A DNA stretch of 64,000 nt from Gaiellaceae bacterium (GCA_035293125.1 DATDOS010000158.1:8963-72962), one strand, 5' to 3'; shown: positions 33,619 through 62,224, counted from the first letter of the stretch. Numbers and translations are program-made. Notes: generated by a model not told the origin, from the letters alone.

Positions 33619-33633
33619 CGAGGGAGCCGACGG

Positions 33634-34377
33634 ATGCCGCGATACGGAATGGTCATCGATCTCGAGCGGTGCATGGGCTGCAGGGCCTGCATGGAGGCGT
33701 GCAAGGTCGAGAACAACACACCGGAGGGCGCCTTCTGGATGCACGTGTTCCGGTTCGAGGAGGGCGAGTACCCGGATACCAAGGTGGGCTTCCTCCCGCG
33801 GCCGTGCCAGCACTGCGAGAACGCGCCATGCGTCAAGGTCTGCCCGGTTCAGGCGAGATACATGCAGGACGACGGCGTCGTCCTGACCGACTTCAAGCGC
33901 TGCATCGGCTGCCGCTACTGCATCGTCGCGTGCCCGTACGGGGTCAACCACTTCAACTGGACGCCACCCGAGGACGCGTACTACCTCGACTGGGACGATC
34001 CGGACCTCGAGAAGGCCACGGGCGGCGCAGTCCCACCGTACGACAACCCGGACCTCGACCAGCCCCACGGAGACCGCGGCACGCTCGTCGCCGGGGGGGG
34101 CCACTACGACGGCACCACCGAGAAGTGCACGTTCTGCGTCCAGCGGCTGGAGAAGGACTTGCTGCCGGCGTGTGTCTCCAACTGCCCCGTCGACGTCTTC
34201 AGCTTCGGCGACCTCGACGACCCCGAGAGCGCGCCGTCTCAGGCCCTGCGCTCGAGACGGGCCTTCCGTCTCAAGGAGGAGCTGAACACGTCACCCAAGG
34301 TCTTCTACGTCGGTCAGCCGCCGCCCAGCGAGGAGATTCGGCCGATCGACATCGTCTCGAGCACCGGAGGCCAGTGA
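33634..34377 (+). CDS. 4Fe-4S ferredoxin-type electron-transfer subunit (PsrB/DmsB/NrfC-like)
   Basis: 247 aa with CMGCRACMEAC, CQHCENAPCVKVCP, CIGCRYCIVACP and CTFCVQRL...CVSNCP. Confidence 0.9.
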   Translation: MPRYGMVIDLERCMGCRACMEACKVENNTPEGAFWMHVFRFEEGEYPDTKVGFLPRPCQHCENAPCVKVCPVQARYMQDDGVVLTDFKRCIGCRYCIVACPYGVNHFNWTPPEDAYYLDWDDPDLEKATGGAVPPYDNPDLDQPHGDRGTLVAGGGHYDGTTEKCTFCVQRLEKDLLPACVSNCPVDVFSFGDLDDPESAPSQALRSRRAFRLKEELNTSPKVFYVGQPPPSEEIRPIDIVSSTGGQ

Positions 34378-34379
34378 CG

Positions 34380-35618: not shown

Positions 35619-36334
35619 GCGGAGGCGCGGACGGGCGAGGGAGCCTGGCAGACCTCGCCCAGGCTCGCCACAGTGCGTATGAGCTGCTCGGCTCGCTCTT
35701 CTTCTATCCAGAGAGGGACGAGGTCGACGGATGGGTCGAGCTCGCCCAGGAGCTCAGGGACCGGTCCGGGCCGCTCCGCGACTTCCCCTTCTTTCCTCGC
35801 CTCGAGCTGGCTCTCGACTCCCTTCTCGAGCTCAGTCGGGAGCAGACGGTGGGGCTGGAGCAGGAGTACCTCGAGCTGTTCGGGCGCGGCAGCTCCAAGG
35901 CGCGGTGCCCGCTCCACGAGTCGGACTACGTCGATCGTACGGGCCTACGGCGCGGGTTGGTTGCCGTCGCGGTCGAGCAGGCTTACGCCGCCGCAGGGCT
36001 GACGCTGTCCTCGGCGACGCGCGGGGAGCTCCCGGACCACGCCGCTTTCGAGCTCGAGTTTCTGTCGCACCTCTGCGCGAAGGAGGCGAAGGCGAGGGAG
36101 GACGATCGGCCCGAGGAGGTCGCCGGCCTCCTGCGTGTTCAGAGGAACTTCCTCGACCGGCACCTTCTCCTCTGGTTCCCCGCCCTCGTGCACAACGTGC
36201 GGCTCGCCGCTCCCGTGGGCTTCTACCGAGACATCGCCGACGTCGCCCATGCATTAGTCGTCCACGACCGCGATCTGATTGCCGTCCTCGAGGTTGATTG
36301 CAACGAGCCGGCAGTCGCCGCCTTCGCGCCGTGA
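35615..36334 (+). CDS. TorD/DmsD-like redox-enzyme maturation chaperone (probable CTG start)
   Basis: Motifs YELLGSLFFYPE, EQEYLELFG and DHAAFELEFLSHL. The conserved N-terminal third precedes the first canonical start (GTG 35849). CTG 35615 overlaps the upstream TGA (CTGA), with an alternative CTG at 35645. Confidence 0.7.
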   Translation: MSGGADGRGSLADLAQARHSAYELLGSLFFYPERDEVDGWVELAQELRDRSGPLRDFPFFPRLELALDSLLELSREQTVGLEQEYLELFGRGSSKARCPLHESDYVDRTGLRRGLVAVAVEQAYAAAGLTLSSATRGELPDHAAFELEFLSHLCAKEAKAREDDRPEEVAGLLRVQRNFLDRHLLLWFPALVHNVRLAAPVGFYRDIADVAHALVVHDRDLIAVLEVDCNEPAVAAFAP

Positions 36335-36335
36335 C

Positions 36336-37922
36336 GTGAGTGCGCCGCCGCACGTCTGCGTCGGGTTGTGCGGCGACCTCGAGCAGGACGCCGGGCTCGA
36401 GCTCGCCGCTGTCGCCAACGCGTTGGAGGGGTTTTCCTCGAACGTCGGTGTAGCGGTCGTGCCGGGCCTGTGCCACTCGCCTGATCTTGTGGCCTCCCTC
36501 GCTGCCACCACCCACGCGACCCGTATGGCGCTCGGCCTCTGCGCACAGTCGACGCGAAGCGACGAGTTCCAGGCCTGGGCGCGAAAGGCCGGGCTCGACC
36601 CGTTCGCGGTCGAGCTCGTCAACCTCGACGGCGCCGAGAGCGCGGACACGGCTGTACTCGTCCTCGCAGGCGCAGTGGCTCGGCTGAGGGCGCTCCCGGG
36701 AAGCAGGCCTGAGGAGCTCAAGCTACGACTCGTCTCTTTCGAGCAGCGACGGACCCGGCGGTCCTTGTTCAGTCTCCCCCCAACCACCTACGAGGCCGTC
36801 GCCGGCATCGAGGAAGCGAGCTGCCTCGGACCGCAGCACTGCGGGCGCTGCATCAGCACCTGTCCGTTCTCGGCCATCAGGGCAGTCGGTGTGAAAGTGA
36901 CCGTCGACAGAGACCGATGCGAGTCCTGCGGGTTGTGCGTCACGGCGTGCCCGACCAACGCGATCGGGTTACCCGGCTCCGCCCTCTCTCAGTACGAGGC
37001 CGAGATGGCGACTCTCCTCTCGGCAGATCAACCCAGCCTGCTCCTTACCTGCCGACGGTCCGCCTCCACCGTTGCCGGAGGCAACGGCCGAGCGCCACTC
37101 TCGGCGGGGTGGCTCCCGGTCACGGTGCCCTGTCTCGGCATGGTGACTCCCGGATGGATCTTGCAGGCGCTCGCGCGTGGAGCCTCGACGGTCGCGCTCC
37201 TCGGCTGCGGCGAACGCTGTCGTTCGGACCGGGCGACCATCAGCCGAGAGCGTGTGGACTTCGTTCGCGAGCTCCTCGGCCTCCTCGGCGAGAGCGCTCC
37301 TTCGCAGAGGGTGCTGTGGATGGACCCGGACTCCGCGCTGACCCGAGCGGACGCGTTCCCATCACGCACGAGAGACCGCACAGACGACCGAGCGCTGTCC
37401 CTTCTCGAACCCGCCGCCACGACGGCGGGCGCCGTCGAGCTCGCTGAGCGCTACGGAGCACGTCCCGACGTCTCTCTGCCCCACGCGGGTTCTCCGCTCG
37501 GGATGGTCAGGCTCCGGGAGGAGACCTGCACAGCCTGCGGCGCGTGTCCCGCCGTCTGCCCCACCGAGGCTCTGCTCTACGAGGAGGGGCCACAAGGCGA
37601 AGCGATCATCTCCTTCGAGGCCGCGCGCTGCGTCTCCTGTGGGAATTGCGCGCGCGTGTGCCCGGAAAGTGCGAGCGACACCTTGAGCGTCAGCCCGCGC
37701 ATCGATCTTGCCGCTCTCGCTCATGGACGAGTCGCCCTCAAGCGGGCTGCTTCTGCGCGCTGCCGCAAGTGTGGGCGTGCGATCGCGCCAGACGCAATGC
37801 TGAGGAGAATCAGAGCACTGCTCGAGGGCGACGAGGCGTCCGAGCCGCTGATCGCGATCCTGACCCAACTCTGCAGCGATTGCCGAGCGCTCGACTCCAC
37901 CCCGTCAGTGGGCGACCACTAG
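36336..37922 (+). CDS. Cytoplasmic polyferredoxin with MvhD/FlpD-like domain
   Basis: GTG 36336, 2 nt after the chaperone stop. Motifs CGRCISTCP, CESCGLCVTACP, CTACGACPAVCP and CVSCGNCARVCP. The central segment LPVTVPCLGMVTPGWILQALARGASTVALLGCGERC resembles MvhD. The C terminus has a CRKCG...CSDC ribbon. Confidence 0.75.
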   Translation: MSAPPHVCVGLCGDLEQDAGLELAAVANALEGFSSNVGVAVVPGLCHSPDLVASLAATTHATRMALGLCAQSTRSDEFQAWARKAGLDPFAVELVNLDGAESADTAVLVLAGAVARLRALPGSRPEELKLRLVSFEQRRTRRSLFSLPPTTYEAVAGIEEASCLGPQHCGRCISTCPFSAIRAVGVKVTVDRDRCESCGLCVTACPTNAIGLPGSALSQYEAEMATLLSADQPSLLLTCRRSASTVAGGNGRAPLSAGWLPVTVPCLGMVTPGWILQALARGASTVALLGCGERCRSDRATISRERVDFVRELLGLLGESAPSQRVLWMDPDSALTRADAFPSRTRDRTDDRALSLLEPAATTAGAVELAERYGARPDVSLPHAGSPLGMVRLREETCTACGACPAVCPTEALLYEEGPQGEAIISFEAARCVSCGNCARVCPESASDTLSVSPRIDLAALAHGRVALKRAASARCRKCGRAIAPDAMLRRIRALLEGDEASEPLIAILTQLCSDCRALDSTPSVGDH

Positions 37923-38013
37923 GTTGCCCCACCTCCCGGAGCAGACTGGGGAGCGGCGGAACGTCAGCCGCTTCCCAGCGAAAGCTTCATCGGCCAGGGA
38001 GCGACGTGGCGAG

Positions 38014-38059
38014 CGGGAGCGACGGGACTCGAACCCGCGACCTCCGGCGTGACAGGCCG
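38014..38059 (-). repeat. tRNA-Asp(GTC) 3'-half fragment, copy 1 (att-like direct repeat)
   Basis: The reverse complement CGGCCTGTCACGCCGGAGGTCGCGGGTTCGAGTCCCGTCGCTCCCG covers the anticodon arm (loop CTGTCAC), variable loop, T-arm and 3' acceptor strand. There is no D-arm or 5' acceptor upstream. Confidence 0.85.
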
Positions 38060-38328: not shown

Positions 38329-40740
38329 TCATGCGCTCCCCGCTCGGCTGCGAAGGGAGCTGTACTGCGGCCTGGAGAGGGACCTGTCCATCGAGCCAGG
38401 GGCGTACGCGCATGCGGGATCCTCGCCGAGCGCGTCTCCGGACGCCGCGAACGCTCGCGCGCGCGAGCCTCCGCAGAGGTCTGCGTATTCGCACTCGCCG
38501 CAGCGCCCGTGGAAGCGGGCCGCGCGGATGTCCCGGAGCAGCGGGTGGCTCCTGTAGATGTCGACGATGCTCTTCACCCTGACGTTCCCCAGCGGCAGGG
38601 GAAGGAAGCCGGCTGGGAAGACGTCCCCATTGTGGGCGACGAAGACAACGCCCTTGCCATCGCGGGTTCCGCCTGTCTGCGCCCGCGGCTCGGAGCTCGC
38701 CTCGCCAAGCTGCTCTCGCAGGCGTGCGGCGAGCACGTCGTACAGCGGTCCGAGACCGTACGTGCTCCTCGGGTCGGCGCCACTTTCGTCCTTGCTGCGC
38801 CAGGCGACGACGCGTCGGAAGAAGGGTGCCTCGACGGTCCGGACGACGAGTCCGTACGACGAGGCGTCGAACAGGAAGTGGCACACGTCCTCGCTCTCGT
38901 CCGGGGTGAGGTCCACGAGGTTTCGCCCCCTGCCCACGCGCACGAGGAAGAAGAGCTCCCAGACCGACGCCTCATGCTCTTTGACGAGCCTCGCGACGTC
39001 AGCCAGCTCGTGCGCGGTCTCACGCATGACGAGGGTGTTGACCTGTACGTTGAGGCCGCAGCTCCGGGCGAGACGAAGCGCATCGAGCGTCGCCTGGAAG
39101 TGCCCCTCTGCTTGTCTGACCCGCTCGTGCGTCTCGGCGCTGCCGCCGTCGAGACTGATGGAGACGGTCGTGACGCCCCGCTCCCGCAACGCTGTCAGCG
39201 CCTCCGCCGTGAGCGACGGCGTGACTGCCGGCGCGACCGCGATACGGAGGCCGAGCGCCGAGGCATGGCCCACGAGCTCCGGGAGATCGGGCCGCTGCAG
39301 CGGGTCGCCGCCGGTGAAGATGGTGATGGGCCGGGGCTCACCAAACGAGGCCACAGCCTCGAGCAGGGAGCGCGCCTCGTCGTGGCCGAGCTCACCCGGG
39401 AGCGGGCTCGGGATCGCCGCCGCCCGGCAATGGCGGCAGGAGAGGGTGCATGCCCTCGTGGCCTCCCAGAAGACGAGACGCGGATGCGCGTCGAAATCAA
39501 GGTGTGCCGGGGCCGGGGTACGAGCCGACGGCCGGCGGAACGGGAGCCTTCGGCCTACGCTTGCCAGCGTCGCGGTCAGCTCGTCGACCGTGATCTCCGT
39601 GAGCCCACGGCGGCGCGCGGCCTGCTCGACGGCCAGCCTCACGCGGTCTCGGACGAAGGGCGGGATTCGCTCCACCCGCTCGTCTGCCTCCCGCGTCCAG
39701 CGGAGCCGCGGATCCCCCACCTCGGCGGCGCGGCCGAGGGGCCGGTAGGCGCACCACGGGTCCTCGCCGGAGAGGTCTCCGGAGAGGGCGAAGGATCGCG
39801 CGCGGCAGCCGCCGCAGAGCTCGCGGAACTCGCACGTCCCGCAGTGGCCGGTCGGTGTCTCGTCGCGGAGACGGCTCAGGATCGGTGCGTGCTGCCAGAT
39901 CTCCTTGAAAGGGCGCTCGCGGATCGAGCCCGCCTCGAGCGGCAGGTACGGGCACGGGGTTACCTTGCCGTCCGCGGTGATCCGGCAGTACTGTCTCCCG
40001 GCGAGGCAGCCCGCGGAGGCGACGAGCGCCGAACCTCGCCGGGAGGCGATACGGGCGATCTGGGGCGCGCAGCGCGCACGAATCATCAGCCGCGGGTGGC
40101 GCGCCTGCGCGTCGGTCAGTGCTCCGAGCGCCCGCTCGTACTGCGCGGGCGAGATGTCGCTCAGCGTCTCGGCCCGTCCGGTGCAGACGAGGAAGTAGAG
40201 CGTGAAGCCTGCGGCCGACTCTGCCTCTGCGAACCTGATCAGCGCCTCGACCTCGCCGTAGTTCCAGGACAGGGCTGTCGTCTGCACGATCACCGGCACG
40301 TCCTCGGCGACGCAGGCGCGGATGCCGCGAACGGCGCGGCGCCAGGCACCCCGGGCGCCGCGAAAGCGGTCGTGCTTTTCCGGGTCGATCGAGTCGAGGC
40401 TGATCGCTGCCCCCGCCAGACCGAGCTCCTTCAGGCGGCGGGCCCGGGTGCGCGTCAGCAGCAGCCCGTTCGTGCCGAGAACGGGGAGGAGGCCGCGACC
40501 GGCGGCGTGGTCGACGAGCTCGTCGAGGTCGGGACGCAAGAGCGGCTCCCCGCCAGAGAGGATGAGCATCTGTGTCCCAAGGCCGGCCAGCTCGTCGATC
40601 AGCCGCCGTCCCTCGTCGAGCGTGAGCTCCCCGCTCGCCGCCCGCCCGGCGGCGAGGTAGCAATGGCCACAGCGAAGGTTGCAGCGCTGAGTCGTGTTCC
40701 ACGACACGATCTCGGGGTGCCACGTGCGCTCGCTCGTCAT
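38329..40740 (-). CDS. Fused twin radical SAM/SPASM enzyme (AhbC/AhbD/NirJ-like) with a BchB-C-terminal-like linker
   Basis: ATG 40740 (ATGA overlap with the upstream gene), 803 aa. Domain 1 has WNTTQRCNLRCGHCY plus the SPASM motif CGTCEFRELCGGCRARSF. The linker is LRWTREADERVERIPPFVRDRV. Domain 2 has PRLVFWEATRACTLSCRHCRA plus CGECEYADLCGGSRARAF. Confidence 0.85.
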   Translation of the reverse strand: MTSERTWHPEIVSWNTTQRCNLRCGHCYLAAGRAASGELTLDEGRRLIDELAGLGTQMLILSGGEPLLRPDLDELVDHAAGRGLLPVLGTNGLLLTRTRARRLKELGLAGAAISLDSIDPEKHDRFRGARGAWRRAVRGIRACVAEDVPVIVQTTALSWNYGEVEALIRFAEAESAAGFTLYFLVCTGRAETLSDISPAQYERALGALTDAQARHPRLMIRARCAPQIARIASRRGSALVASAGCLAGRQYCRITADGKVTPCPYLPLEAGSIRERPFKEIWQHAPILSRLRDETPTGHCGTCEFRELCGGCRARSFALSGDLSGEDPWCAYRPLGRAAEVGDPRLRWTREADERVERIPPFVRDRVRLAVEQAARRRGLTEITVDELTATLASVGRRLPFRRPSARTPAPAHLDFDAHPRLVFWEATRACTLSCRHCRAAAIPSPLPGELGHDEARSLLEAVASFGEPRPITIFTGGDPLQRPDLPELVGHASALGLRIAVAPAVTPSLTAEALTALRERGVTTVSISLDGGSAETHERVRQAEGHFQATLDALRLARSCGLNVQVNTLVMRETAHELADVARLVKEHEASVWELFFLVRVGRGRNLVDLTPDESEDVCHFLFDASSYGLVVRTVEAPFFRRVVAWRSKDESGADPRSTYGLGPLYDVLAARLREQLGEASSEPRAQTGGTRDGKGVVFVAHNGDVFPAGFLPLPLGNVRVKSIVDIYRSHPLLRDIRAARFHGRCGECEYADLCGGSRARAFAASGDALGEDPACAYAPGSMDRSLSRPQYSSLRSRAGSA

Positions 40741-42101
40741 GGTCGGTGGAAGCGTCCCGTCTCCGCCCAGTGGCGCCGGGCCTGATCGACGAGATCCGGC
40801 GTGACCTCGGACGTGCCTCGCTCCCGGGCGTACGCCTCGAGCGCGTTGACGATCATGCCGCGAACGAACTCTGGGATGCGGGCGATCCGTCGTGACGCCT
40901 CGTCCGTCCATGTGAGCTCGCTCGTTGCTCTCGCCGAGCCCTCGGCCCATTGCCGGTACTTCTTGTCGAGCACTTCGGCCGTCACCGACGGCAGGCCGAG
41001 ACGGCGGGCGAGCACCTCGACGCGCTGCCTTGTCAGCTCGCGCAACGGCCCCGCCGGTACCTGCTCGAGTTGCGCCTCCGCATCGGGCGCCCAGGACAGC
41101 CGGTCTTCGAGCGGGAGAACCTCGCCGGTGACGACGAGGACGCTACAGGTCGCAAGCCGGGCGATGTTCTCAGCCGTGCTGCCGAGGTCGGCGTGCTCGG
41201 TGCGGTGGCGGCCGAAGCGCCCGGCGACGAGGAGCGCCGGCCTCCGCTCGTCGGCGTGGTCGAGGATCCGCTGGAACGGCTTGCCCTCGAGGAGGGTCGT
41301 CTCGACTCGCTGACCGGCCGTCTCCGCCATGCGTGCAGCCGTCTCCAGGTAGCCGCCGTAGAGCTTCTCGAGGCCGCCGTCGATGATCTGCTCGTGGAGC
41401 TTGCGCTGCTCGTCGAAGCGGAAGCGCTGAGCCTGCTCCTCCGCTAGGACGCCGGAGATGCTCTTGAAGGCGGCGACGTGGAACTGCGGGTCGAAGACGC
41501 TGACGATCTCGACAGGTTCGTCCAGGGCTCGGCCCAGCCGGAGTGCGGAGTCGACCGCCTTCGTGGCTGCGGCGCTGCCGTCGGTGAGGGCGAACACGCC
41601 GCGGCTACCGGGCGGGCGCTTCCGAACGAGGAGAACGTCGATCGGCGCGCGGCGCAGGACCCGCTCGCTCACGCTTCCGATCAGGCTTCGCCGCCTCGCC
41701 CCGAGCCCGAGCGCGCCGAGCGCGACGAGGTCGCAGCCGTCCCGGGCGATCTCCTCGAGGATCTTCACGTAGTTCGTCCCCTCGGCGAGGCGGCGCTCGA
41801 AGGTGACCTTTAGGCGGCAGAGCTTCTCGGCGTGATCGAGGTACGACTCGGAGATGATGCGCAGGCCGTCGGAGATGAGCGTCCCGTGCACGGCGCGCGA
41901 GCCGCTCAGCTTCTCGGGGCTGGAGTAGGGGGCCGGCAGGGCGGGCTCCATCTGGCGGAACCGCGTCTCGTGGAGCCGCGCCGCATAGGCGTGGAAGGCG
42001 ACGACCGTCCCGTCGGCACGCCCCGCGAGCGCCGCCGCTTGCAGTACCGCCTCGTCGCTGTGTTGCGAGTTATCGACCGGGACGAGGATGCGCGCGTACA
42101 T
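40737..42101 (-). CDS. Tandem universal stress protein domains plus two BchB-C-terminal-like (PCP_red-like) repeats
   Basis: 454 aa with MYARILVPVDNS...GSVSERVLRRAPIDVLLV and a second USP unit. The C-terminal repeats are LSWAPDAEAQLEQVP... and LTWTDEASRRIARIPEFVRGMIVN. Confidence 0.8.
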   Translation of the reverse strand: MYARILVPVDNSQHSDEAVLQAAALAGRADGTVVAFHAYAARLHETRFRQMEPALPAPYSSPEKLSGSRAVHGTLISDGLRIISESYLDHAEKLCRLKVTFERRLAEGTNYVKILEEIARDGCDLVALGALGLGARRRSLIGSVSERVLRRAPIDVLLVRKRPPGSRGVFALTDGSAAATKAVDSALRLGRALDEPVEIVSVFDPQFHVAAFKSISGVLAEEQAQRFRFDEQRKLHEQIIDGGLEKLYGGYLETAARMAETAGQRVETTLLEGKPFQRILDHADERRPALLVAGRFGRHRTEHADLGSTAENIARLATCSVLVVTGEVLPLEDRLSWAPDAEAQLEQVPAGPLRELTRQRVEVLARRLGLPSVTAEVLDKKYRQWAEGSARATSELTWTDEASRRIARIPEFVRGMIVNALEAYARERGTSEVTPDLVDQARRHWAETGRFHRP

Positions 42102-42102
42102 G

Positions 42103-42474
42103 TCAGACGGGGGAGTCGTGGCGCCGCCAGGCGCGCGTCCGGCTCCACATCGACGGGTAGAGGGCGCGCATGGCCGGGGTCTGGAGGTAGAGGACGATCG
42201 CGACGTCGACTGCCAGAGGAAGTGGATGGCCGAGGTGGACGGAGCGGACTGCGTCGAACGTGGCGAAGACGTAGCCGGCCATACGCGCTCTCGGACTGCG
42301 GCGCGAGAGGGTGTACGCCGCCCAGGGCGCCGCGACGCAGTAAGCGAGCACGCCGGTCGATCCGTGCCCGTAGTTGAGTCCCGGGAGGGATCCCGTGACG
42401 ATCGCCCACACCTCGAGCGCCGGCGCGACGCTCAACAGAAGGACGAGAGGGAGGGCCGGCCGGAGCGGGCTCAT
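42103..42474 (-). CDS. Small hypothetical membrane protein (123 aa)
   Basis: ATG 42474 (ATGA overlap) inside track ORF 42103..42759. It has 3-4 hydrophobic helices and ends 2 nt before the USP gene start. Confidence 0.55.
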   Translation of the reverse strand: MSPLRPALPLVLLLSVAPALEVWAIVTGSLPGLNYGHGSTGVLAYCVAAPWAAYTLSRRSPRARMAGYVFATFDAVRSVHLGHPLPLAVDVAIVLYLQTPAMRALYPSMWSRTRAWRRHDSPV

Positions 42475-42875
42475 GGTGTCCTCCGAGTGGCCGCCTTGCC
42501 GCCGATCATGCTGCCGACGAAGCTCGTGACGAGGATGAGGAGGGGCCAGACGAAGAAGAAGGTCGAATCGCCCGTGGCGAGTCCGGGAAGCGGGTCGGGC
42601 AGGGCCTCCGCCAACTCGGCTCCGAAGAGGACGCCGGCGACGATTCCGAAGTAAAGCGTGCCGAGGACGGCGCCGTAGAGCGGCTCCGGCTCGCGTGCGT
42701 ACCAGCCGAGGAGAAAGCCCGCAGCGAGCAGCGAGGGCACGCTCGCCAGCGCGAGCCACCAGACATTGTCCGTCAAGAGCAACGGCGCGGCTCCGAGGGC
42801 GACCGTGCCGGCTGCGCTCGCGCCCAGCGCGAGGAGGAACACAGGTGTGCGGGGTGGTCTGTGGTGCCGCGACAT
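42471..42875 (-). CDS. Small hypothetical membrane protein (134 aa)
   Basis: ATG 42875, 4 nt after the cytochrome c stop. About 4 hydrophobic helices (VFLLALGASAAGTVALGAAPLLL...). Confidence 0.6.
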   Translation of the reverse strand: MSRHHRPPRTPVFLLALGASAAGTVALGAAPLLLTDNVWWLALASVPSLLAAGFLLGWYAREPEPLYGAVLGTLYFGIVAGVLFGAELAEALPDPLPGLATGDSTFFFVWPLLILVTSFVGSMIGGKAATRRTP

Positions 42876-42879
42876 GGCC

Positions 42880-43575
42880 CTAGTCCCCGACCTCGCCGTC
42901 CTCGACCTCATCGGTAGGTCTCCCCGTCAGCGTCGTCAGGTAGGCGACGAGATCCTCGAGCTGTTCCGCGGAGACGAGCGCTTTGTAGCGAGGCATGATC
43001 GGCGCGTACTTCGGGATCTTGAAGTCGTACGCCGATCCGGCCTTCAGCTTCTCGAACAGGTAGTCACGCGCTGTCAATCCGGGCACGCGGCCGCCGGCCC
43101 TCGACGCGACTTGCGTTAGGTCGGGGCCGCGGATGCCCCCCTGGCCCGCGATGGAGTGGCAGCGGAAACACCCGACCGTGGGGTTGCTGAAGAGCTCCCG
43201 CCCGCGGTCGGCGGCTTGCTCCTTCTGCGCGGGAGCCTTCTCCGCCTTCGGCGGGGAGAACTGTGGGTAGACGACGCCAACGGCGACGAGCAACCCGACC
43301 GTGACGAGGTAGACGGCTGCCACGCTCCCCACTACTGAAGCCGGGCGTTCCGGCGTGCGGATCCGCTCCCTGCCGAGAAACCAGAAGAACAGGCCGGCGA
43401 GGAGAGCCATGACCGTGAAGAACACCCGGTAGACCCAGCCGAACTGGAGTCCCGTCTCCTCCGGGACGAAAGGCAGACCGACCCAGATCGCCACGAGCAC
43501 GACGAGCAGCACCGCGCCCTTGCTTCGGATCAGGCGACGCAGCGACGGGGCTTTCTGCTGTGGCGCGACGGCCAC
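42880..43575 (-). CDS. Membrane-anchored monohaem cytochrome c
   Basis: 231 aa with three N-terminal hydrophobic helices and then CFRCH (CxxCH). GTG start 2 nt after the CydA-like stop. Confidence 0.8.
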   Translation of the reverse strand: MAVAPQQKAPSLRRLIRSKGAVLLVVLVAIWVGLPFVPEETGLQFGWVYRVFFTVMALLAGLFFWFLGRERIRTPERPASVVGSVAAVYLVTVGLLVAVGVVYPQFSPPKAEKAPAQKEQAADRGRELFSNPTVGCFRCHSIAGQGGIRGPDLTQVASRAGGRVPGLTARDYLFEKLKAGSAYDFKIPKYAPIMPRYKALVSAEQLEDLVAYLTTLTGRPTDEVEDGEVGD

Positions 43576-43577
43576 TT

Positions 43578-44996
43578 CTACGCCTCCTGCTCCGGTTTAC
43601 CAAGCTTGAATCCGATCCAAAATATGAATGCCATGAACGTGAAGAAAATCATCGTGATGATTCCGACCATGATGCTCGTGTGGCCGAGCGGGGTCGTGTA
43701 CCACTGCGGCGTCGTATCGCGGAGGACGCGATACACATGCCAGTCCTGGCGGGACAGCTCGCGGATCGCCCCCATCAACCCCATCAGGTAGACGACGACA
43801 GCGGGCACGAAGACGAGCGCATACTGGGCCTGAGGCGCGATCTCTCCCCAGCGGACGGCCCCGAGGGCCATCGCTCGGCGGTAGACCATGTACGTGACGA
43901 AGGTGAGGAGGATGATCGCCGTGACGGCCAGGGCTTTCGCCATCATCAGCCCCAGAAAGCCCGCCCGCTCGGGCAGCACGATGTCCTCGAGCGCGACACC
44001 AGGCGTCTGCGTCGTCAAGTCCGGATAGAAGTTCTGCGGGATGATCCAGACGATGCCGCCCGCGACGATCACGCCGAAGATCGGGCGCATGTAACCGGAA
44101 AAGCGCTCCGCTCCGTCGATGCGGCGGATACTCATCCACATGTAGTAGTTGACACCGAGGAAGAGGAGGCTGACGAGCAGCCCCTGCATGACGAAGAAGC
44201 TCGAAAGCTTGTCCGCCATCTGAAACGTGGCGATGTTCGCGTCGTAGAGGAAAATCTCCTTCGCGTAGATGTAGCCGGCAAGCGGCAACAGGATGAGCGT
44301 GGCGACGCCGATGAAGTTGCCGATGAACCCCATCCAGTCGTAGAAGGCGCGGTCCTCCCGGCTCTTCGCCGTCAGGAACATGAAGGCAGCGAAGAGCGCG
44401 ATCATGAACCCGCCGAAGGTGATGTTCGCGATGAAGCGGTGCAGGTTGAGCCCGCTGAACGTGTCGTTGTTGACGAGCGCCCAGACGCTCGCCGTCGCCG
44501 CGTTCTCCGGCGGCGTCAGCATGTAGGAGCCGACCGCATTCATCATCACCATCGTCGCGGTGCCGGTGACGTTGAGGGCCACGCCGATGGAGAGATGCAG
44601 CCTCTTCCGGTCGGCGAGGGGCTCCCACGAGTACCAGTAGACGTACATGAGCGCTGTCTCGACGAAGAAGAGCCCGCCGTAGATCGCGAAGACCGGCCCC
44701 ATCCGGTCGAGCAGATGGGTTGCGACCTCGTGGTAGGGGCCCATCAGCACGAACGCGAACGCGGCCCCCGAGAGCGCCGTGAAGCTGTAGGCGATCGCCA
44801 CCACTTTCATCGCTTCCCTCGCCAGCCGCTCGTAGCGCTGGTCCCTACGCCGGTGCCCCAGCCACTCGCAGACGACGATGAAGATCGGCGCGCCAAGGAC
44901 GAAGGCGGCAAAGAGGAGGTGGATCTGCGCGACGAGCCAGACCAGCGACCGGGCGTCGATCGCCGCGAGTGGGAGAAGGACCGAGCCCGCCTCCAC
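43578..44996 (-). CDS. Cytochrome bd subunit I (CydA)-superfamily membrane haem protein; no CydB partner present
   Basis: 472 aa. VWLVAQIHLLFAAFVLG (N-terminal His), MMNAVGSYMLTP and LHRFIANITFGGFMIA resemble CydA. It abuts the cupredoxin stop with a 0-nt gap. Confidence 0.8.
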   Translation of the reverse strand: MEAGSVLLPLAAIDARSLVWLVAQIHLLFAAFVLGAPIFIVVCEWLGHRRRDQRYERLAREAMKVVAIAYSFTALSGAAFAFVLMGPYHEVATHLLDRMGPVFAIYGGLFFVETALMYVYWYSWEPLADRKRLHLSIGVALNVTGTATMVMMNAVGSYMLTPPENAATASVWALVNNDTFSGLNLHRFIANITFGGFMIALFAAFMFLTAKSREDRAFYDWMGFIGNFIGVATLILLPLAGYIYAKEIFLYDANIATFQMADKLSSFFVMQGLLVSLLFLGVNYYMWMSIRRIDGAERFSGYMRPIFGVIVAGGIVWIIPQNFYPDLTTQTPGVALEDIVLPERAGFLGLMMAKALAVTAIILLTFVTYMVYRRAMALGAVRWGEIAPQAQYALVFVPAVVVYLMGLMGAIRELSRQDWHVYRVLRDTTPQWYTTPLGHTSIMVGIITMIFFTFMAFIFWIGFKLGKPEQEA

Positions 44997-45470
44997 CTAC
45001 TTCACCACCAGCGTTCCGGTCATCCCCCGCTTGTTGTGGTTGCTGATCGGGCAGGAGATGCGATAGGCGCCCGGCTTCAGGTCGATCTTCCACTCGCGGT
45101 CGCGTCCCTGCCCGACCTTGGGCGCCTTCTCGTCGACGCCCTCGCCCTCGACTCGGAAGTCGTGCGTATAGCGCCCCTCGTTCACAAGGTGGAACGTGAT
45201 CGTTCCGGCCTTGCCCATGACTTTGTCCGGCACGAGCTTGAAGTCCTTGAGGCTCATCTGGATCGTCGCCTTGGGCGGCCCTACGGGGGGCTCGTCCTGG
45301 GTCTCGCTCGGCGCCGTCTCCTGCGGCGCGGCGGCCGTCGGAGAGAGGGCGCTCGTCCCCTTCGCTGCGAGCGGGTGGGGGACCGCCGGCTCGCCCGCGG
45401 CGAGGAAGAAGGCCCCACCCAGTCCAAGCATCCAGAGCAGAACCAGCGCCGATATCGCCCAAGCCCGCAC
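44997..45470 (-). CDS. Secreted/anchored cupredoxin-domain protein
   Basis: 157 aa with a signal/anchor helix. Type-1 Cu ligand pattern THDF ... SCPISNHNKRGMTGTLVV (C-x4-H-x4-M). Confidence 0.75.
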   Translation of the reverse strand: MRAWAISALVLLWMLGLGGAFFLAAGEPAVPHPLAAKGTSALSPTAAAPQETAPSETQDEPPVGPPKATIQMSLKDFKLVPDKVMGKAGTITFHLVNEGRYTHDFRVEGEGVDEKAPKVGQGRDREWKIDLKPGAYRISCPISNHNKRGMTGTLVVK

Positions 45471-45712
45471 CGTCTCTCTCCACCTCTCGCTAGTTCGCGA
45501 CCCTCATCGAGAACGTCATGCGGACGGCTCGACGCATGGGTTCACGGACTCGCCCACCCGTGCCGGCTTGGGTGGACGCACGCTCATCGTCATCCAGTGC
45601 CCGCCCATCGTCAGCCCCTTTCCGGCCGATCCGAGTCGGCGACCCGTGGGCCGCCGTGCGACAACGAGTCAGCGCAGACTCGAGAGCACGGCGGCCTGGG
45701 GGGTACGGGCCT

Positions 45713-46246
45713 CTAGCACGACGGGAATACCCGGATCAATGCCTTCATCGTCGGCTCGTGCTTGTTGCAGATGAGCGTGTAGACGCCCGACTGCTTCGCC
45801 TTGAAGCTCACGACGTACTCGCGGCCCCGGTTGTGGCTCTTCTCCTTCACGACCTCGTCGCCGTTCGGGGCCTCGACCCAGTCCTTGTGCTCGTCGCCGT
45901 TGACCGCGAAGAGCCTGAGCGCGACCGTGTCCCCCTTGCACGCGGTCATCGCACCCGGAGTTATGAACTGGTAGGCGGACACCTCCCACTTCGTCGGCGC
46001 CGCCGGGTCGGCGACACCGGGTGCCTTGTAGCCGTACGCGTCGGAGAGCTTCGACGGGTCCTTCGCGGGCGGCGCCAGCTTGTCCGTCGTGGTCGAGCCC
46101 TTGAGCTCGGCCTGGATGATGTTGAACTCGACCTTCTGCGGCTTCGCTGCGTCGCCGCCGGACGCGGTGCCGACTGCGACCGCGAGAGCCGCTGCGGCAG
46201 TCATGCCAACGCCCCCCACGAGCAGCAGGCGAAAACGCTTCTCCAT
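45713..46246 (-). CDS. Secreted blue-copper (cupredoxin-like) protein
   Basis: 177 aa with signal peptide MEKRFRLLLVGGVGMTAAAALAVA. Motifs GDEHKDW ... LICNKHEPTM (C-x2-H-x3-M). Confidence 0.7.
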   Translation of the reverse strand: MEKRFRLLLVGGVGMTAAAALAVAVGTASGGDAAKPQKVEFNIIQAELKGSTTTDKLAPPAKDPSKLSDAYGYKAPGVADPAAPTKWEVSAYQFITPGAMTACKGDTVALRLFAVNGDEHKDWVEAPNGDEVVKEKSHNRGREYVVSFKAKQSGVYTLICNKHEPTMKALIRVFPSC

Positions 46247-46379
46247 CTCGGCGTCTCCTTTGAGTCGGTTACGTGCCTCAGCTGCTTGTACTGCCGGAAG
46301 GCGTCACGGTTCCATATCGCCGCCGTCCCAATTCCGTCACAGGTCCTAGCGGCTGGGCGACGCGCCGCGGGCCTCCATA

Positions 46380-47075
46380 TCAGCCCGGGGGCGCGAGCAT
46401 GTAGCCGACACCGGACCTCGTGACGATGTAGCGGGGGTCAGAAGCGTGCTCCTCGAGCTTCTGCCGGAGCCGCCAGAGAGTCACGCGCAGCATGTGGTAG
46501 TCGCCGCGGCTGGTGCCTCCCCACACCCTCTCGAGCAGCTCGTCCCGAGTGAGGACGACCCCCACGCTCGTCGCGAGGCAAGCCAGGACGCGGAACTCAG
46601 TCGGCGAGAGACGCACCTCGCGTCCACGCACGGTCACCCGCTGCGCGAGCAGGTTGATCTCGAGGTCGCCCACCGTCAGCGCCGACTGACTCGGCGGGGG
46701 CGAGGTGGGATGCGCTCGCCGCAGGACGGCGCCGACGCGCGCGACGAGCTCCTGCGCCGAGAACGGCTTCGTCACGTAGTCGTCGGCTCCAAGGCCGAGT
46801 CCCCTGACCTTCTCTTCGTCGGCTCCCTTCGCGGTGAGGATGATGATCGGCGTCGTCGAGACCTCGCGGATCCGGCGGCAGACCGCGAAGCCGTCGAGGC
46901 CGGGCAGCATCACGTCCAGCACGACGAGGTCCGGCTCGCCCTGGGCGAGAAGCGCCAGCGCATGCTCGCCGGTGGCGGCGCACGTCACGCGGTACTTCCT
47001 TGCCTCGAGATTGAACCGGATGATCTGGAGGTAGCGCGGCTCGTCGTCGACGACGAGGATGTGCTCGCCTGCCAT
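46380..47075 (-). CDS. OmpR-family response regulator
   Basis: ATG 47075 with ILVVDDEP...DLVVLDVMLPGLDG...LTAKG receiver and a winged-helix output (LSPTEFRVL...GVGYML). ATGA overlap with the kinase gene. Confidence 0.92.
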   Translation of the reverse strand: MAGEHILVVDDEPRYLQIIRFNLEARKYRVTCAATGEHALALLAQGEPDLVVLDVMLPGLDGFAVCRRIREVSTTPIIILTAKGADEEKVRGLGLGADDYVTKPFSAQELVARVGAVLRRAHPTSPPPSQSALTVGDLEINLLAQRVTVRGREVRLSPTEFRVLACLATSVGVVLTRDELLERVWGGTSRGDYHMLRVTLWRLRQKLEEHASDPRYIVTRSGVGYMLAPPG

Positions 47076-49540
47076 CAGCGCCCCTCCTCGTGCGGCGACG
47101 CGCCGTCTTCGAAGAGCGGGAGCGAGAAGAGGAACGTGCTGCCGCTCCCGGGCCCGCTCTCGACCCAAAGCCGACCCCCCTGCGCCTCGACGATCGCCCT
47201 GCAGATCGCGAGCCCGAGGCCGGTTCCGCGGACACGGCGGCGCCGCGAGTTCTCGCCGCGGTAGAAGGGCTCGAAGATCGCCTCTCGCTCGTCTTCGGGA
47301 ATCCCGTCTCCACGGTCGGTGACGCTGACGACCGCCTCATCGGTTTCCCGGTGGACGACGAGCTCGACTCGAGTCTCCGGCTCGGAGTAGCGAGCGGCAT
47401 TATCGAGCAGGTTCCGCAGCACCTGCTCGATCCGTAGCGGGTCGACGAGCACCCGCAACTCGCCGTCGTGGTGGAAGGTCGACAGCGCATGCCCCGTCTC
47501 CTCGAGCATCGGTCGGGCTCGCGCCCCGACGTCCTCCACGAGCGCGTCGAGAGCCACGAGCTCGGTCTCGAGGGAGAGGCGACCGCTCTGGAAACGGGAG
47601 GCGTCGAGCAGATCGTCGATCATCTGCTGCAGCTTTGCAGCCTCCTCGTCGATGATCCGGACGAACGTCTGGCGCGTCGCGAGGTCGATCGGAGCGATGT
47701 CGTCGGAGAGCAGGGTCGTTGCGTAGCTGCGGATGAAGCCGAGCGGAGTCCGCAGCTCGTGGGACACGGCCGAGATGAGCTCCGCCTTGACCCGTTGCGC
47801 CTCGCGCTGCGTTTCGACCCGCCGGAGCTCGTCGAACAGACGCGCGTTCTCGATCGCCAGCGCGACCTCGTTTCCGATCGCGTGCAGCATCCGCCGCTCC
47901 CCGGGCGGGAGAGCATCGCCGCCATGCGAGAGGAGAAGGACTCCCAACGTCCGCCCACGGGCCTGGAGCGGAAGGATGGCGAGACTGCGTCCGGCGGGCG
48001 CCCGGCACGGTGGGCGGAATGTCCTGCGGGCGTCCGGGTCGAGGAAGAGGGCGTGCCCGCTCGCGGCCACGACCGCGCAGGGGCAGCGGTCCGCGCCGAC
48101 GTTCTGGTCTCGGCAGGGAAAGCCTGCTGAGTCGCCGCGAAAGATGGGTGGCTCCAGCTTCCCCGATCTCTCGTCCAGTAGCCGTACTGCGCCTGCGTCC
48201 ATATTGGTGTGCTCGAGGGCCACGTCGAGGCAGCGCCGCAACGTCGTTTCAACGTCGCGAAGCTCACTGGCGGCCGTCGCGACGGCCGCGAGGCCGGCGA
48301 GTTGGCGGTTGCGCATGCGGAGCTCGGTCGTCCGCTGCTCCACTTTCGCCTCGAGCTCCTCTCCCCAGCGCGTCACCTTTTCCAGCGAGTCGCGCAGCTG
48401 GGTCCGCATCGTCTCGAGGCTCGTCGCAAGGGCGCCGATCTCGCCGCCTTCCGCGACACGGACCGGCTCGTCGAGGTCTCCAGCCGCCATCCCCCCCGCC
48501 GCATGCGTCAACGTGCGCACCGGCCGTACGAGGAGCCGCGCGCCGACGAGCGTGACGACCCAGAGGAAGGCGAGCGCAAGCGCTCCCGCGAGCAGGAGGG
48601 TATTCCGAAGCCGCGCCACCGGGGCGAAGGTCTCGCGCGTCGATCCGCCCACGGACACGCCCCAAGGCGCGTTGGTCAGAGGCGCGAACGCCATCACGTG
48701 GTGCTCGCCCTCTCGATTCGCAGGCACCTGATGCCACGGCGTGTACGGGACGTCCTCGACGCCCGCCTCCCTCGCGCGGAGCTTTTGAAGGTAGAAGTCG
48801 AGGTGCTCGCCCGGCTTCAGGAACCCGCCGTAGCCGGTGGAGGCGACGATGAGTCCTCCCTCGCCTACCAGCTCCGCGTGACCCGTGTGCCCGACATCCT
48901 TCGCGTGGCTGAGCGGCTTCGAGACATCGGCACCGGCCACGTTCAGGAGTCCCACGAGGAGCGAGCGAACCGTGCCGTCGCGATTGAGGAGCGGTCTCGT
49001 GAGAGCGACGGCCGGCGCGCCCGTCGACGGATCGCGGAAGGGCGGCGAGACAGTGCGCCGCCTCGTGACGATCGCCTGTCTGACGTAGGGAGCGCGCGAG
49101 AGGTCGGCGCCCCGCTGCAGCTTGCCCGGCGGCTGCGAGAGGACGATTCTCCCGCGCGCGTCGAGGAAGTAGACGCCGAGGGAGAGAGTGCCGACGCGGC
49201 CGTACGCGTGGTTCAGCATGTGCACTTCCGCGGAGAGCGAGGGGGCAGCCGGATCGAAGCGGGCGAACCGCGTTGCCTGCTCGAGCTCGTAGAAGCCGCG
49301 CTCGAGCAAGCGATCGATGTCGCGTGCCGCCATCTTGGCGATGACGAGCCGCTCTTCCAGGATGCGGTCCGTGCTGTCCTCGACCGCGCGCAGGGCCAGC
49401 AGCGTGAAGACGGCGAACAGGAGGAGGAAGCCGCCTGTTACGGCGATGACGAGCCGCGGCCAGAGGTTGAGCCGACGCCACGTGGCGAGGAGCTTCACGG
49501 CCTTCAACCTCCTTGGTGCCTGCTGAGGGTGGATTCGCAT
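47075..49540 (-). CDS. Sensor histidine kinase (TM - extracytoplasmic Cache-like - HAMP - GAF - HisKA - HATPase)
   Basis: H-box AELISAVSHELRTPL, N/G boxes LLDNAARYS and GTGLGLAICRAIVEAQGG, and a GAF segment with a CPC motif. The start is uncertain (ATG 49540 or the upstream start at 49633). Confidence 0.88.
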   Translation of the reverse strand: MRIHPQQAPRRLKAVKLLATWRRLNLWPRLVIAVTGGFLLLFAVFTLLALRAVEDSTDRILEERLVIAKMAARDIDRLLERGFYELEQATRFARFDPAAPSLSAEVHMLNHAYGRVGTLSLGVYFLDARGRIVLSQPPGKLQRGADLSRAPYVRQAIVTRRRTVSPPFRDPSTGAPAVALTRPLLNRDGTVRSLLVGLLNVAGADVSKPLSHAKDVGHTGHAELVGEGGLIVASTGYGGFLKPGEHLDFYLQKLRAREAGVEDVPYTPWHQVPANREGEHHVMAFAPLTNAPWGVSVGGSTRETFAPVARLRNTLLLAGALALAFLWVVTLVGARLLVRPVRTLTHAAGGMAAGDLDEPVRVAEGGEIGALATSLETMRTQLRDSLEKVTRWGEELEAKVEQRTTELRMRNRQLAGLAAVATAASELRDVETTLRRCLDVALEHTNMDAGAVRLLDERSGKLEPPIFRGDSAGFPCRDQNVGADRCPCAVVAASGHALFLDPDARRTFRPPCRAPAGRSLAILPLQARGRTLGVLLLSHGGDALPPGERRMLHAIGNEVALAIENARLFDELRRVETQREAQRVKAELISAVSHELRTPLGFIRSYATTLLSDDIAPIDLATRQTFVRIIDEEAAKLQQMIDDLLDASRFQSGRLSLETELVALDALVEDVGARARPMLEETGHALSTFHHDGELRVLVDPLRIEQVLRNLLDNAARYSEPETRVELVVHRETDEAVVSVTDRGDGIPEDEREAIFEPFYRGENSRRRRVRGTGLGLAICRAIVEAQGGRLWVESGPGSGSTFLFSLPLFEDGASPHEEGR

Positions 49541-49958
49541 CGGACCGGAACCCTGTAGGCGGTCAGCGGCCCTGCTCCGACCCCGGGCAGTGTCGCGCGC
49601 CCCTTCGAGCCCGGAATGAGCAACATTGACCACCTTCCTGGTAGGCCGGTGGGCGCCCTCGTAGAGGGCATCCGCCGCACTCGCCCAGCGTGATCCCCTC
49701 CCCGCTCACTGTCAACCCGATCTCGTCGAGGTGAGCGGCACCGTCGTCGACGCCCGCCGGCTTCTCCGGAGGTACAGGCGCCCGAACGCAGCGGAGGAGT
49801 CACATCCCCTACCTGCCGGCGGCGGTCGAGGCAGCGTGGCTACGTCGAGCCACCCACCAAAGAGATGACCCTTCCGCCTGCAGCCGACGGCGGCTGCTCG
49901 GACTCACATGTCGAGGAGTTGAACCCCATACCGCATATGGCGATTCCAGGGCTCTCAG

Positions 49959-50004
49959 CGGGAGCGACGGGACTCGAACCCGCGACCTCCGGCGTGACAG
50001 GCCG
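49959..50004 (-). repeat. tRNA-Asp(GTC) 3'-half fragment, copy 2
   Basis: Identical core CGGGAGCGACGGGACTCGAACCCGCGACCTCCGGCGTGACAGGCCG on the plus strand. There is no 5' tRNA half. Confidence 0.85.
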
Positions 50005-56493: not shown

Positions 56494-56524
56494 CTCGCCT
56501 CCTGGCGCGAACGCTAACACCGAC

Positions 56525-62141: not shown

Positions 62142-62180
62142 GGCCGACAAGAAACGGGCCTCGTTGCAGCGGCTACGAGA

Positions 62181-62224
62181 CGGGAGCGACGGGACTCGAA
62201 CCCGCGACCTCCGGCGTGACAGGC
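62181..62224 (-). repeat. tRNA-Asp(GTC) 3'-half fragment, copy 3
   Basis: Same core CGGGAGCGACGGGACTCGAACCCGCGACCTCCGGCGTGACAGGC. The 5' strand of the anticodon stem is not preserved, and there is no 5' half. Confidence 0.85.

Follow-up and report, generated by a model that had tools for sequence, protein, structure and literature searches.

What feeds electrons to a haem protein that resembles subunit I of cytochrome bd but is encoded without CydB, and which haem serves it? The question is raised by a 64,000-nt stretch of DNA (the window; G+C ~70%) from a Gaiellaceae bacterium (GCA_035293125.1, DATDOS010000158.1:8963-72962), in which seven minus-strand open reading frames (ORFs) at 38329-45470 encode, in order, a cupredoxin (cup1), a CydA-like haem subunit, a cytochrome c, two small membrane proteins (mem1 and mem2), a universal stress protein (USP) and a long radical S-adenosylmethionine (rSAM) protein. 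A first-pass annotation had described these genes as an uncharacterised module with periplasmic electron input and a dedicated, possibly modified, haem. We favour, with moderate confidence, a quinol-independent terminal reductase of the bd type, similar to the OR-N enzymes, that is fed by cytochrome c and cupredoxin and accompanied by its own tetrapyrrole-maturation cassette. That the cassette is a dedicated tetrapyrrole cassette is, judging from the sequence comparisons below, highly probable; that its product is a non-canonical haem is a tentative proposal.

The CydA-like subunit, its donors and its operon

On sequence and on its structural model the 472-aa protein is placed in the cytochrome bd superfamily, with a predicted CydA fold. 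The PF01654 match (E 9e-20) spans residues 15-249 only, that is, helices 1-6, and phmmer gave 5doq_A at 2.7e-10 with H26 aligned to His21. In the alignments with CydA chains of the PDB, H26 takes the place of the His19/His21 ligand and H186 that of the b558 histidine, while the position of the first channel glutamate (E99) is occupied by Y106 and that of the second (E107) by E113. Equivalents of His19, Glu107, His126, His186 and Met393 are all kept, and among 68 homologues H26, Y106, E113, Y118, Y120, W124, K131, H134, H186 and M260 are invariant and Y122 nearly so. An AlphaFold2 model built on the homologue alignment (predicted local distance difference test, pLDDT, 87.9; predicted template modelling score, pTM, 0.87) has 11 transmembrane (TM) helices. 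When it was compared with the PDB in Foldseek, the first ten matches were without exception CydA chains (E 1e-9 to 1e-6, TM score 0.5-0.6), and CydB chains came far behind.

The linker between TM helices 6 and 7, where cytochrome bd has its Q-loop, is only about 10 residues long in the model (H213-251 to H262-291) and the Pfam match ends at residue 249; the Q-loop is absent. No operon ORF matches PF02322 (CydB) in Pfam, no second CydA-like gene is present in the window, and neither mem1 nor mem2 aligned with a PDB chain of CydB or CydX at E <= 10. The presence of CydB, CydX or another CydA among the small ORFs or elsewhere in the window was therefore rejected, and with it the idea of a cydB hidden in one of the small membrane ORFs, for which the first-pass annotation had left room. 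With the Q-loop, the CydB partner and E99 all missing, the protein is not a canonical bd quinol oxidase.

Murali, Gennis and Hemp (2021) divided the superfamily into the quinol oxidases (qOR); a family whose CydA-like subunit itself contains haem c motifs (OR-C); and OR-N, named for Nitrospirota, with no quinol site and with alternative donors encoded in the operon; the functions of OR-C and OR-N are catalogued there as untested (10.1101/2021.01.16.426971). The two latter classes correspond to the clades of unassigned function, with CydA-like proteins and c-type cytochromes, that the first-pass annotation had mentioned. Membership of OR-C was rejected because the 472-aa subunit contains no CxxCH. 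The OR-N features are present: no quinol site, the first four helices and His19 kept, and a cupredoxin and a cytochrome c in the operon. The OR-N2 signature, Y183/E190/Y197/Y199/H213/H269/G155 (Supplementary Table 6 of 10.1101/2021.01.16.426971), has equivalents here in Y106/E113/Y120/Y122/H134/H186/G77, with identical spacing for the first four and G77 and with the two histidines off by 2-4 residues. Identity to the two paralogues of one Nitrospira genome is 39% and 38%; the protein has the Glu of the N2-type paralogue and the MADKL motif of the N1-type, and the separate insertions that lengthen the two are both missing, from which we assign it by sequence to OR-N as a short, 11-helix, cupredoxin-linked form. 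The OR-N2 type as published has 14 TM helices, and its operon encodes several c-type cytochromes as well as an EbdC-like haem b protein (10.1101/2021.01.16.426971); here there are 11 helices, one monohaem cytochrome c and no EB_dh protein. The group is compact, since only 84 clusters were found at E <= 1e-30 (one representative per 50%-identity cluster, ~15 billion proteins).

The candidate electron donors keep their ligands. Both copper proteins carry the His/Cys/His/Met set of type-1 (blue) copper sites and are predicted to bind copper. In cup1 the set is H103, C140-x4-H145-x4-M150, which contains the C-x4-H-x4-M motif first noticed; among 37 orthologues H103, C140 and H145 never vary, and 28 of the 37 have M150. 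In cup2, which has a weak Copper-bind match in Pfam, H120, C160, H163 and M167 are invariant in 16 orthologues. The cytochrome c has the three N-terminal hydrophobic segments and the CxxCH that had been described (CFRCH, C136xxC139H140), and with C136/C139/H140 98% and the distal M194 95% conserved it is a class I cytochrome. mem1 has a conserved motif, LPxPLPGLxxGDSTFFFVWPL; it matched neither CydB nor any PDB chain, and mem2 gave no family match and no match in the PDB.

The ORFs lie at the coordinates first given, and all junctions of the operon, read from the sequence, agree with the 0-4 nt gaps or ATGA overlaps reported at first. The TAG of cup1 abuts the GTG start of the CydA-like gene (0 nt), and AA separates the TAG of the latter from the GTG with which the cytochrome c gene starts (2 nt); TAG, GGCC and ATG lead from there into mem1 (start 42875; 4 nt). 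An ATGA overlap joins mem1 to mem2 (start 42474), TGA, C and ATG join mem2 to the USP gene (1 nt), and a further ATGA overlap leads into the 803-aa rSAM ORF (start 40740). On the upstream side, as described, the second blue-copper gene, cup2, ends 242 nt from cup1, and beyond it lie an OmpR-type regulator and then a dCache-HAMP-GAF sensor kinase (Table 1). The regulator most likely starts at the ATG at 47075, overlapping the predicted kinase stop by 1 nt; a 231-aa regulator orthologue in a sister contig agrees with this start. Pfam and NCBIfam also bore out the domain content first given for the operon, in which the PCP_red domains had been overlooked.

Table 1. Features of the locus, in window coordinates. 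The last column gives the number of loci in which the gene neighbours the CydA-like gene, among the 43 loci with a CydA-like protein of 55% identity or more; the denominator is the loci with enough flank.
Feature	Position	Strand	Basis	Neighbour in loci
Sensor histidine kinase	47075..49633	-	Pfam dCache_1-HAMP-GAF-HisKA-HATPase_c	5/21
OmpR-type response regulator	46380..47075	-	Pfam Response_reg + Trans_reg_C	
cup2, predicted membrane-anchored type-1 copper protein, 177 aa	45713..46246	-	one N-terminal hydrophobic segment	13/31
cup1, membrane-anchored Cupredoxin_1 protein, 157 aa	44997..45470	-	PF13473	36/37
CydA-like haem subunit, 472 aa	43578..44996	-	PF01654, AlphaFold2 model, ligand conservation	
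Membrane-anchored monohaem cytochrome c, 231 aa	42880..43575	-	Pfam Cytochrom_C 5e-9	39/39
mem1, 4-TM protein, 134 aa	42471..42875	-	hydropathy, conserved motif	35/41
mem2, small membrane protein, 123 aa	42103..42474	-	ATGA overlap with mem1	
USP-PCP_red protein, 454 aa	40737..42101	-	Pfam Usp 4e-44, PCP_red 3e-24	20/22
Twin rSAM N-half, rSAM/SPASM, NirJ2/AhbD-like group	39721..40740	-	motif CNLRCGHC	19/22 (rSAM)
PCP_red between rSAM halves	39571..39699	-	PF08369, 5e-12	
Twin rSAM C-half, TIGR04053-family rSAM/SPASM	38329..39510	-	483.5 bits, cutoff 395	
tRNA 3'-half-like 45-nt repeat, copy 1	38013..38057	-	identical core	
tRNA 3'-half-like 45-nt repeat, copy 2	49958..50002	-	identical core	
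tRNA 3'-half-like 45-nt repeat, copy 3	62180..62224	-	identical core	

A genome scan with one genome per GTDB species gave 59 CydA-like loci, mostly from groundwater, in Actinomycetota, Chloroflexota, Beta- and Gammaproteobacteria, Bipolaricaulia, Fraserbacteria, Acidobacteria, Methylomirabilia and Nitrospirota. The closest, in a Gaiellaceae metagenome-assembled genome (MAG), encodes a haem protein of 96% amino acid identity. The arrangement is far beyond chance because its gene order is kept in dozens of genomes of several phyla. The USP and rSAM genes accompany the CydA-like gene at most loci (Table 1), so that the other condition named in the first-pass annotation as refuting it, a lack of this co-occurrence, does not hold either. 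Five or six genes are broadly conserved, and mem2, cup2 and the two-component system are patchy: mem2 is confined to the nearest lineages (orthologues in L006, L008, L009, L065 and one sister contig), and the kinase orthologues upstream of the same gene set are 54-61% identical.

Electron entry from the periplasmic side, as first suggested, is consistent with the kept copper and haem c ligands and with the near-constant presence of cup1 and the cytochrome c. We infer that cup1, cup2 and the cytochrome c, on the outer face, would pass electrons to a low-spin haem at His186/Met260 and thence to a high-spin site near His26/Tyr106/Glu113. This site is the most probable place of O2 reduction, for which protons would enter by way of Glu113, a channel residue that has been kept. 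mem1 may be a structural subunit in place of CydB/CydX, and the dCache-GAF kinase and OmpR-type regulator would switch the module on. On genomic and expression grounds, OR-N enzymes have been taken as the likely terminal oxidases of Nitrospira and Manganitrophus (10.1101/2021.11.15.468770; PMC12342949). The kept equivalents of His19, Glu107, His126, His186 and Met393, together with the four-helix architecture of the O2 site, speak for O2 and against the alternative that the protein reduces NO, nitrite, peroxide or chlorite, or merely relays electrons to a periplasmic partner. We consider that alternative unlikely, although the Tyr in place of E99 and the uncertain third-haem ligand fit it, as do the many hosts that are groundwater or oxygen-minimum-zone anaerobes and the NirJ-like rSAM protein, with its echo of haem d1 of nitrite reductase. 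A sister clade, 44-52% identical, is encoded directly downstream of genes for molybdenum-bis(pyranopterin guanine dinucleotide) (Mo-bisPGD) and Fe-S proteins similar to nitrite oxidoreductase (NXR) and ethylbenzene dehydrogenase (Ebd), which suggests an anchor or relay; beside the clade described here no Mo enzyme is conserved, and the literature treats OR-N enzymes as presumed oxygen reductases (10.1101/2021.01.16.426971).

In the sister clade itself (L039-L044, L047, L056; Caldilineales, Anaerolineae, Methylomirabilia, Nitrospirota) the CydA-like gene is preceded, at a distance of 2-5 kb, by a gene for a Mo-bisPGD and/or 4Fe-4S subunit, and there is no cupredoxin/cytochrome c set. The gene content suggests that these proteins may partner a periplasmic NXR/Ebd-like molybdoenzyme.

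The radical SAM and PCP_red cassette

The two last genes of the operon encode proteins with a common domain. The USP protein has two Usp domains, with the ATP motif G-x2-G-x9-G-S at residues 129 and 294, followed by two C-terminal PCP_red (PF08369) domains (~40740-41114) whose region matches the C-termini of ChlB/BchB in the PDB over ~45-60 residues. The long rSAM ORF has CxxxCxxC motifs at residues 90 (CNLRCGHC) and 501 (CTLSCRHC) and matches Radical_SAM (3e-50) and SPASM (3e-16) in Pfam; it is a twin rSAM/SPASM protein with a PCP_red domain between its halves. Thousands of homologues have the rSAM-PCP_red fusion.

The best family matches of both halves are NirJ, NirJ1/2, AhbC and AhbD, with peptide maturases much lower, so that the first-pass description of an AhbC/AhbD/NirJ-like pair holds for family resemblance; taken alone, neither half is an AhbD or NirJ equivalog. 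The N-half scores 351 bits for NirJ2, 285 for AhbD and 252 for TIGR04053, and the C-half 184, 261 and 483.5, respectively, against cutoffs of 500 bits for AhbD (TIGR04545), 500 for NirJ2 (TIGR04055) and 395 for TIGR04053. The whole-protein scores of 540 and 530 bits for AhbD and NirJ2 are sums over the two halves, each below 500, and an equivalog assignment was rejected. By score the C-half is a genuine TIGR04053 member, within a large family of unassigned function. A fused AhbA/AhbB sirohaem decarboxylase is encoded immediately after a metagenomic relative of the N-half (47% identical) that has no PCP_red. Because the best matches are tetrapyrrole enzymes and this relative stands beside AhbA/AhbB, AhbD-like chemistry on an iron tetrapyrrole is a reasonable model for the rSAM protein, at scores below the AhbD equivalog cutoff.

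SPASM enzymes are typically peptide maturases, and the closest solved structures by sequence are PqqE and SkfB. A peptide or protein substrate, such as a cupredoxin, a cytochrome or a small ribosomally synthesised and post-translationally modified peptide, is nevertheless very unlikely in our view: MftC and PqqE score 145 and 130 bits against 351 for NirJ2, no conserved small precursor ORF was seen, and the PCP_red fusion, the HemY-type neighbour found at other loci and the Ahb-cluster relative all point to tetrapyrroles.

The twin architecture was rejected as a general one. No more than five protein clusters have it, the rSAM-PCP_red protein of other loci is single, and at one locus (L065) the two rSAM genes are separate and adjacent, the second being 69% identical to the C-half here; from these comparisons we read the twin protein as a lineage-specific fusion. 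The same locus shows other rearrangements (L065 4203-8895 and 12924-13205): its two-component system and oxidase genes are separated by an AbiEi/AbiEii toxin-antitoxin pair together with a methyltransferase/aldolase gene, a 93-aa ORF with a GlutR_dimer (HemA dimerisation) match stands between mem2 and the USP gene, and two extra cupredoxin genes come after the rSAM genes.

Beyond this operon the cassette recurs with further members. A betaproteobacterial locus has the cupredoxin, CydA-like, cytochrome c and mem1 genes, then an Mrp/ApbC-like ATPase, a free PCP_red protein, a USP-PCP_red protein, an rSAM-SPASM-PCP_red protein and a protoporphyrinogen oxidase-family gene, which is HemY-type (TIGR00562, 288 bits, cutoff 98). 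A HemY-type gene comes directly after the rSAM gene at 7 distinct genome loci, as it does at L062, L146 and L147, and an Mrp-like ATPase of at least 50% identity is found at 17 distinct loci. In look-ups from the rSAM side, four of five rSAM genes adjoin a longer CydA-like gene (in a Thiodiazotropha MAG, a metagenome contig, a Nitrospirae MAG and a Casimicrobiaceae MAG); the longer proteins of the first two, compared directly, are 33-37% identical to the protein here. Three of these four loci (L063, L146, L147) also have several cytochromes c and an EB_dh domain, as in the OR-N2/TO_1 type. The metagenome contig with the cassette is flanked by two aa3-type oxidase operons. The fifth look-up (L064 10001-13201) is a single 1066-aa USP-PCP_red-rSAM/SPASM-PCP_red fusion, which ties USP to rSAM in the Rosetta-stone sense, with no CydA-like gene within 10 kb; a 496-aa gene that follows it was rejected on comparison as not CydA-like.

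Linkage was measured in 80 metagenome loci fetched by the rSAM core, an unbiased set. A CydA-like neighbour was present for 8 of the 21 rSAM genes with fused PCP_red and for none of the 59 without it (Fisher p = 7e-6); when only loci of at least 8 kb were counted, the figures were 3/7 and 0/30. A dedicated haem cofactor, as the first-pass annotation had suggested, is supported because PCP_red is found on both the USP and rSAM proteins, HemY follows rSAM elsewhere, and the USP and rSAM proteins occur fused; the further suggestion of a modified haem stays doubtful.

In our proposal the cytoplasmic USP-PCP_red and rSAM/SPASM-PCP_red proteins would modify the propionate side chains of a coproporphyrin- or coprohaem-type iron tetrapyrrole and pass the finished cofactor to the CydA-like subunit, with the TIGR04053 half assisting in this lineage and a HemY-type oxidase, an Mrp/ApbC-like ATPase and a small PCP_red protein doing so elsewhere. 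PCP_red recurs on three different cassette proteins, often beside an Mrp-type ATPase. In dark-operative protochlorophyllide oxidoreductase the C-terminal helical domain of BchB/ChlB lies over the bound tetrapyrrole, and one may speculate that PCP_red on the three cassette proteins forms a similar tetrapyrrole lid or, by analogy with BchL-BchNB, a docking module for an ATP-driven electron donor. A bolder version, possible but doubtful, is that the cassette makes and inserts an undescribed haem derivative, from a coproporphyrin- or coprohaem-type intermediate, that is the catalytic cofactor of OR-N oxidases generally; if true, it would cover the presumed terminal oxidases of Nitrospira and Candidatus Manganitrophus. 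How haems other than b, o/a and d1, among them haem d of cytochrome bd, are made for respiratory enzymes is a related question.

The oxidase could also be read correctly and the rSAM proteins still be oxygen-independent housekeeping haem b synthases for hypoxia, with no dedicated delivery and no unusual cofactor. AhbD and NirJ2 are the top family matches, a close relative lies inside a true Ahb cluster, and HemY with an AhbD-like enzyme would supply two of the three terminal steps of the coproporphyrin route; TIGR04053 is moreover a very large stand-alone family, and some cassettes lie far from any CydA-like gene. Yet the cross-phylum linkage is tight and specific to OR-N genes, three different cassette proteins have PCP_red in common, the scores stay under the AhbD cutoff, and a duplicate branch is hard to explain in Beta- and Gammaproteobacteria, which have their own haem b route. 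On balance we find this explanation quite improbable and retain the dedicated cassette.

Several observations weigh against the reading that we favour. Some rSAM-PCP_red cassettes have no nearby CydA-like gene, so the cassette may serve other clients or be more general. Conversely, three marine Dehalococcoidia/SAR202 loci have the oxidase genes with no rSAM within 10 kb, two of them also without the USP gene, and the N1/N2 cluster of one Nitrospira genome has no rSAM within 10 kb. Neither rSAM half reaches the equivalog cutoff of a known tetrapyrrole enzyme. The active site differs from that of cytochrome bd, because the E99 equivalent is Tyr and no equivalent of E445, the third haem ligand, can be aligned. 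Finally, the presumed O2 reduction by OR-N enzymes is taken from homology and from an assumption of the Nitrospira literature (10.1101/2021.11.15.468770; PMC12342949).

Some cassettes have further small redox proteins or domains: a rubredoxin-like domain in some USP-PCP_red proteins (L078 7469-9370) and a small ferredoxin as a cassette member (L063 7610-7852), which are plausible electron donors for the rSAM protein. Stand-alone TIGR04053 genes were looked at in three cases, an anecdotal sample. In one arrangement (L150 5695-8134, L151 2654-5093) the gene is coupled translationally to a small cupredoxin and the haem a synthase CtaA with a haem-copper oxidase operon adjacent, in another (L152 6978-14796) it lies within 6 kb of cupredoxins and CtaA, and another such gene is preceded by ApbE, a Ferric_reduct haem protein, a NuoF-like protein and a ferredoxin. 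These contexts hint at a role of the TIGR04053 family in oxidase haem maturation.

Surroundings of the operon

The first-pass annotation had placed the operon on an island block. Three identical 45-nt cores, GCCTGTCACGCCGGAGGTCGCGGGTTCGAGTCCCGTCGCTCCCG, lie on the same strand at spacings of 11.9 and 12.2 kb, and copies 1 and 2 bracket 38329-49633. The core resembles the 3' half of a tRNA (variable arm, T-arm and acceptor strand); no tRNA or known RNA was called at the repeats by ARAGORN, at Rfam gathering thresholds or, for the third copy, at Rfam E <= 1, and the neighbouring ORFs that were scanned include no integrase. The repeats may be att-like marks left by tandem insertions, or else copies of a dispersed repeat derived from a tRNA. 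The GC content of the block, 64-72% compared with ~70% elsewhere, has its minimum at the membrane-protein genes, and the block proteins are 54-73% identical to those of Chloroflexi loci, a level consistent with horizontal transfer. The case for the island, drawn from the two bracketing repeats and the cross-phylum similarity, is weak.

A convergent plus-strand operon at 31024-37922 encodes a Mo-bisPGD oxidoreductase (864 aa), a 4Fe-4S subunit (247 aa), an NrfD-type protein (412 aa), a TorD-like chaperone (161 aa) and a polyferredoxin/FlpD-like protein (547 aa), by sequence a predicted Psr/Phs-like anaerobic respiratory complex. A functional link to the oxidase was rejected, as the operon is not conserved beside this clade. 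Just past the second repeat, 50385-54884 (+) encodes a 1499-aa protein with Ser/Thr kinase, nSTAND1 NTPase and WD40 beta-propeller domains, which is followed by a BTAD/Trans_reg_C regulator at 54892-56520 (-) and then by several PD40 beta-propeller proteins. A full-length SAM riboswitch (RF00162, 62.7 bits) lies at 823-925 (-).

Comparison with known systems

The OR-N protein family and bd-like enzymes with alternative donors are already known. In the literature searched, the short cupredoxin-linked form, the conserved mem1 and the linkage of OR-N to an rSAM-PCP_red/USP-PCP_red cassette with HemY, Mrp and TIGR04053 members appear to be new. Nothing was found that joins bd-like or OR-N enzymes with radical SAM proteins, NirJ or AhbD, in a search that left subscription journals mostly outside; PF08369 came up only incidentally in unrelated trait-mapping papers, TIGR04053 gave no match, and nothing relevant was found on an oxygen-independent haem a synthase. 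The result has the form of a cross-phylum rule, that OR-N-type genes are encoded with NirJ/AhbD-like rSAM and PCP_red proteins and often with a HemY-type oxidase. It gives a testable handle on the cofactor of OR-N enzymes, with a compact operon that suits heterologous expression, and a first functional context for two large orphan families, rSAM-PCP_red and USP-PCP_red, with added context for TIGR04053.

Compared with canonical cytochrome bd (CydAB[X], qOR1-3), the CydA-like protein has the same subunit I fold and keeps the five residues His19, Glu107, His126, His186 and Met393, but it lacks the Q-loop, CydB and CydX, has Tyr for Glu99 and has two extra C-terminal helices. The donor there is quinol, whereas here copper and haem c proteins that face the periplasm are the predicted donors.

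The cassette proteins are likewise set apart from their nearest relatives. The rSAM halves have the rSAM and SPASM architecture of AhbD, NirJ and AhbC, their best-scoring families, but the N-half carries a C-terminal PCP_red domain and is encoded beside a respiratory enzyme rather than with Ahb or Nir genes. The PCP_red domains match the C-terminal domain of BchB/ChlB over some 45-60 residues; here they occur without the nitrogenase-like core, fused to USP or rSAM proteins or free-standing. HemW-type chaperones of the rSAM family provide a precedent for the delivery of haem to a membrane respiratory enzyme; HemW is HemN-like, without SPASM and PCP_red.

The closest known systems are the OR-N 'bd-like' proteins of Nitrospira (NIDE0901-like) and Candidatus Manganitrophus (TO_1). 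Common to these and to the protein described here are the Q-loop-less CydA fold, the Tyr-x6-Glu-x6-Tyr-x-Tyr signature, the His19/His186/Met equivalents and a c-type cytochrome encoded in the operon, and at the position of L71 there is Gly, as in OR-N2. Where OR-N2 operons have several cytochromes c and an EbdC-like protein, the short form described here has one or two cupredoxins, a single monohaem cytochrome c and a 4-TM protein; the published type has 14 helices, against 11 here, and a second CydA-like subunit is absent from this locus. The rSAM/USP/PCP_red cassette goes unmentioned in the accessible papers on OR-N, and it is this cassette that most distinguishes the present operon from the published accounts.

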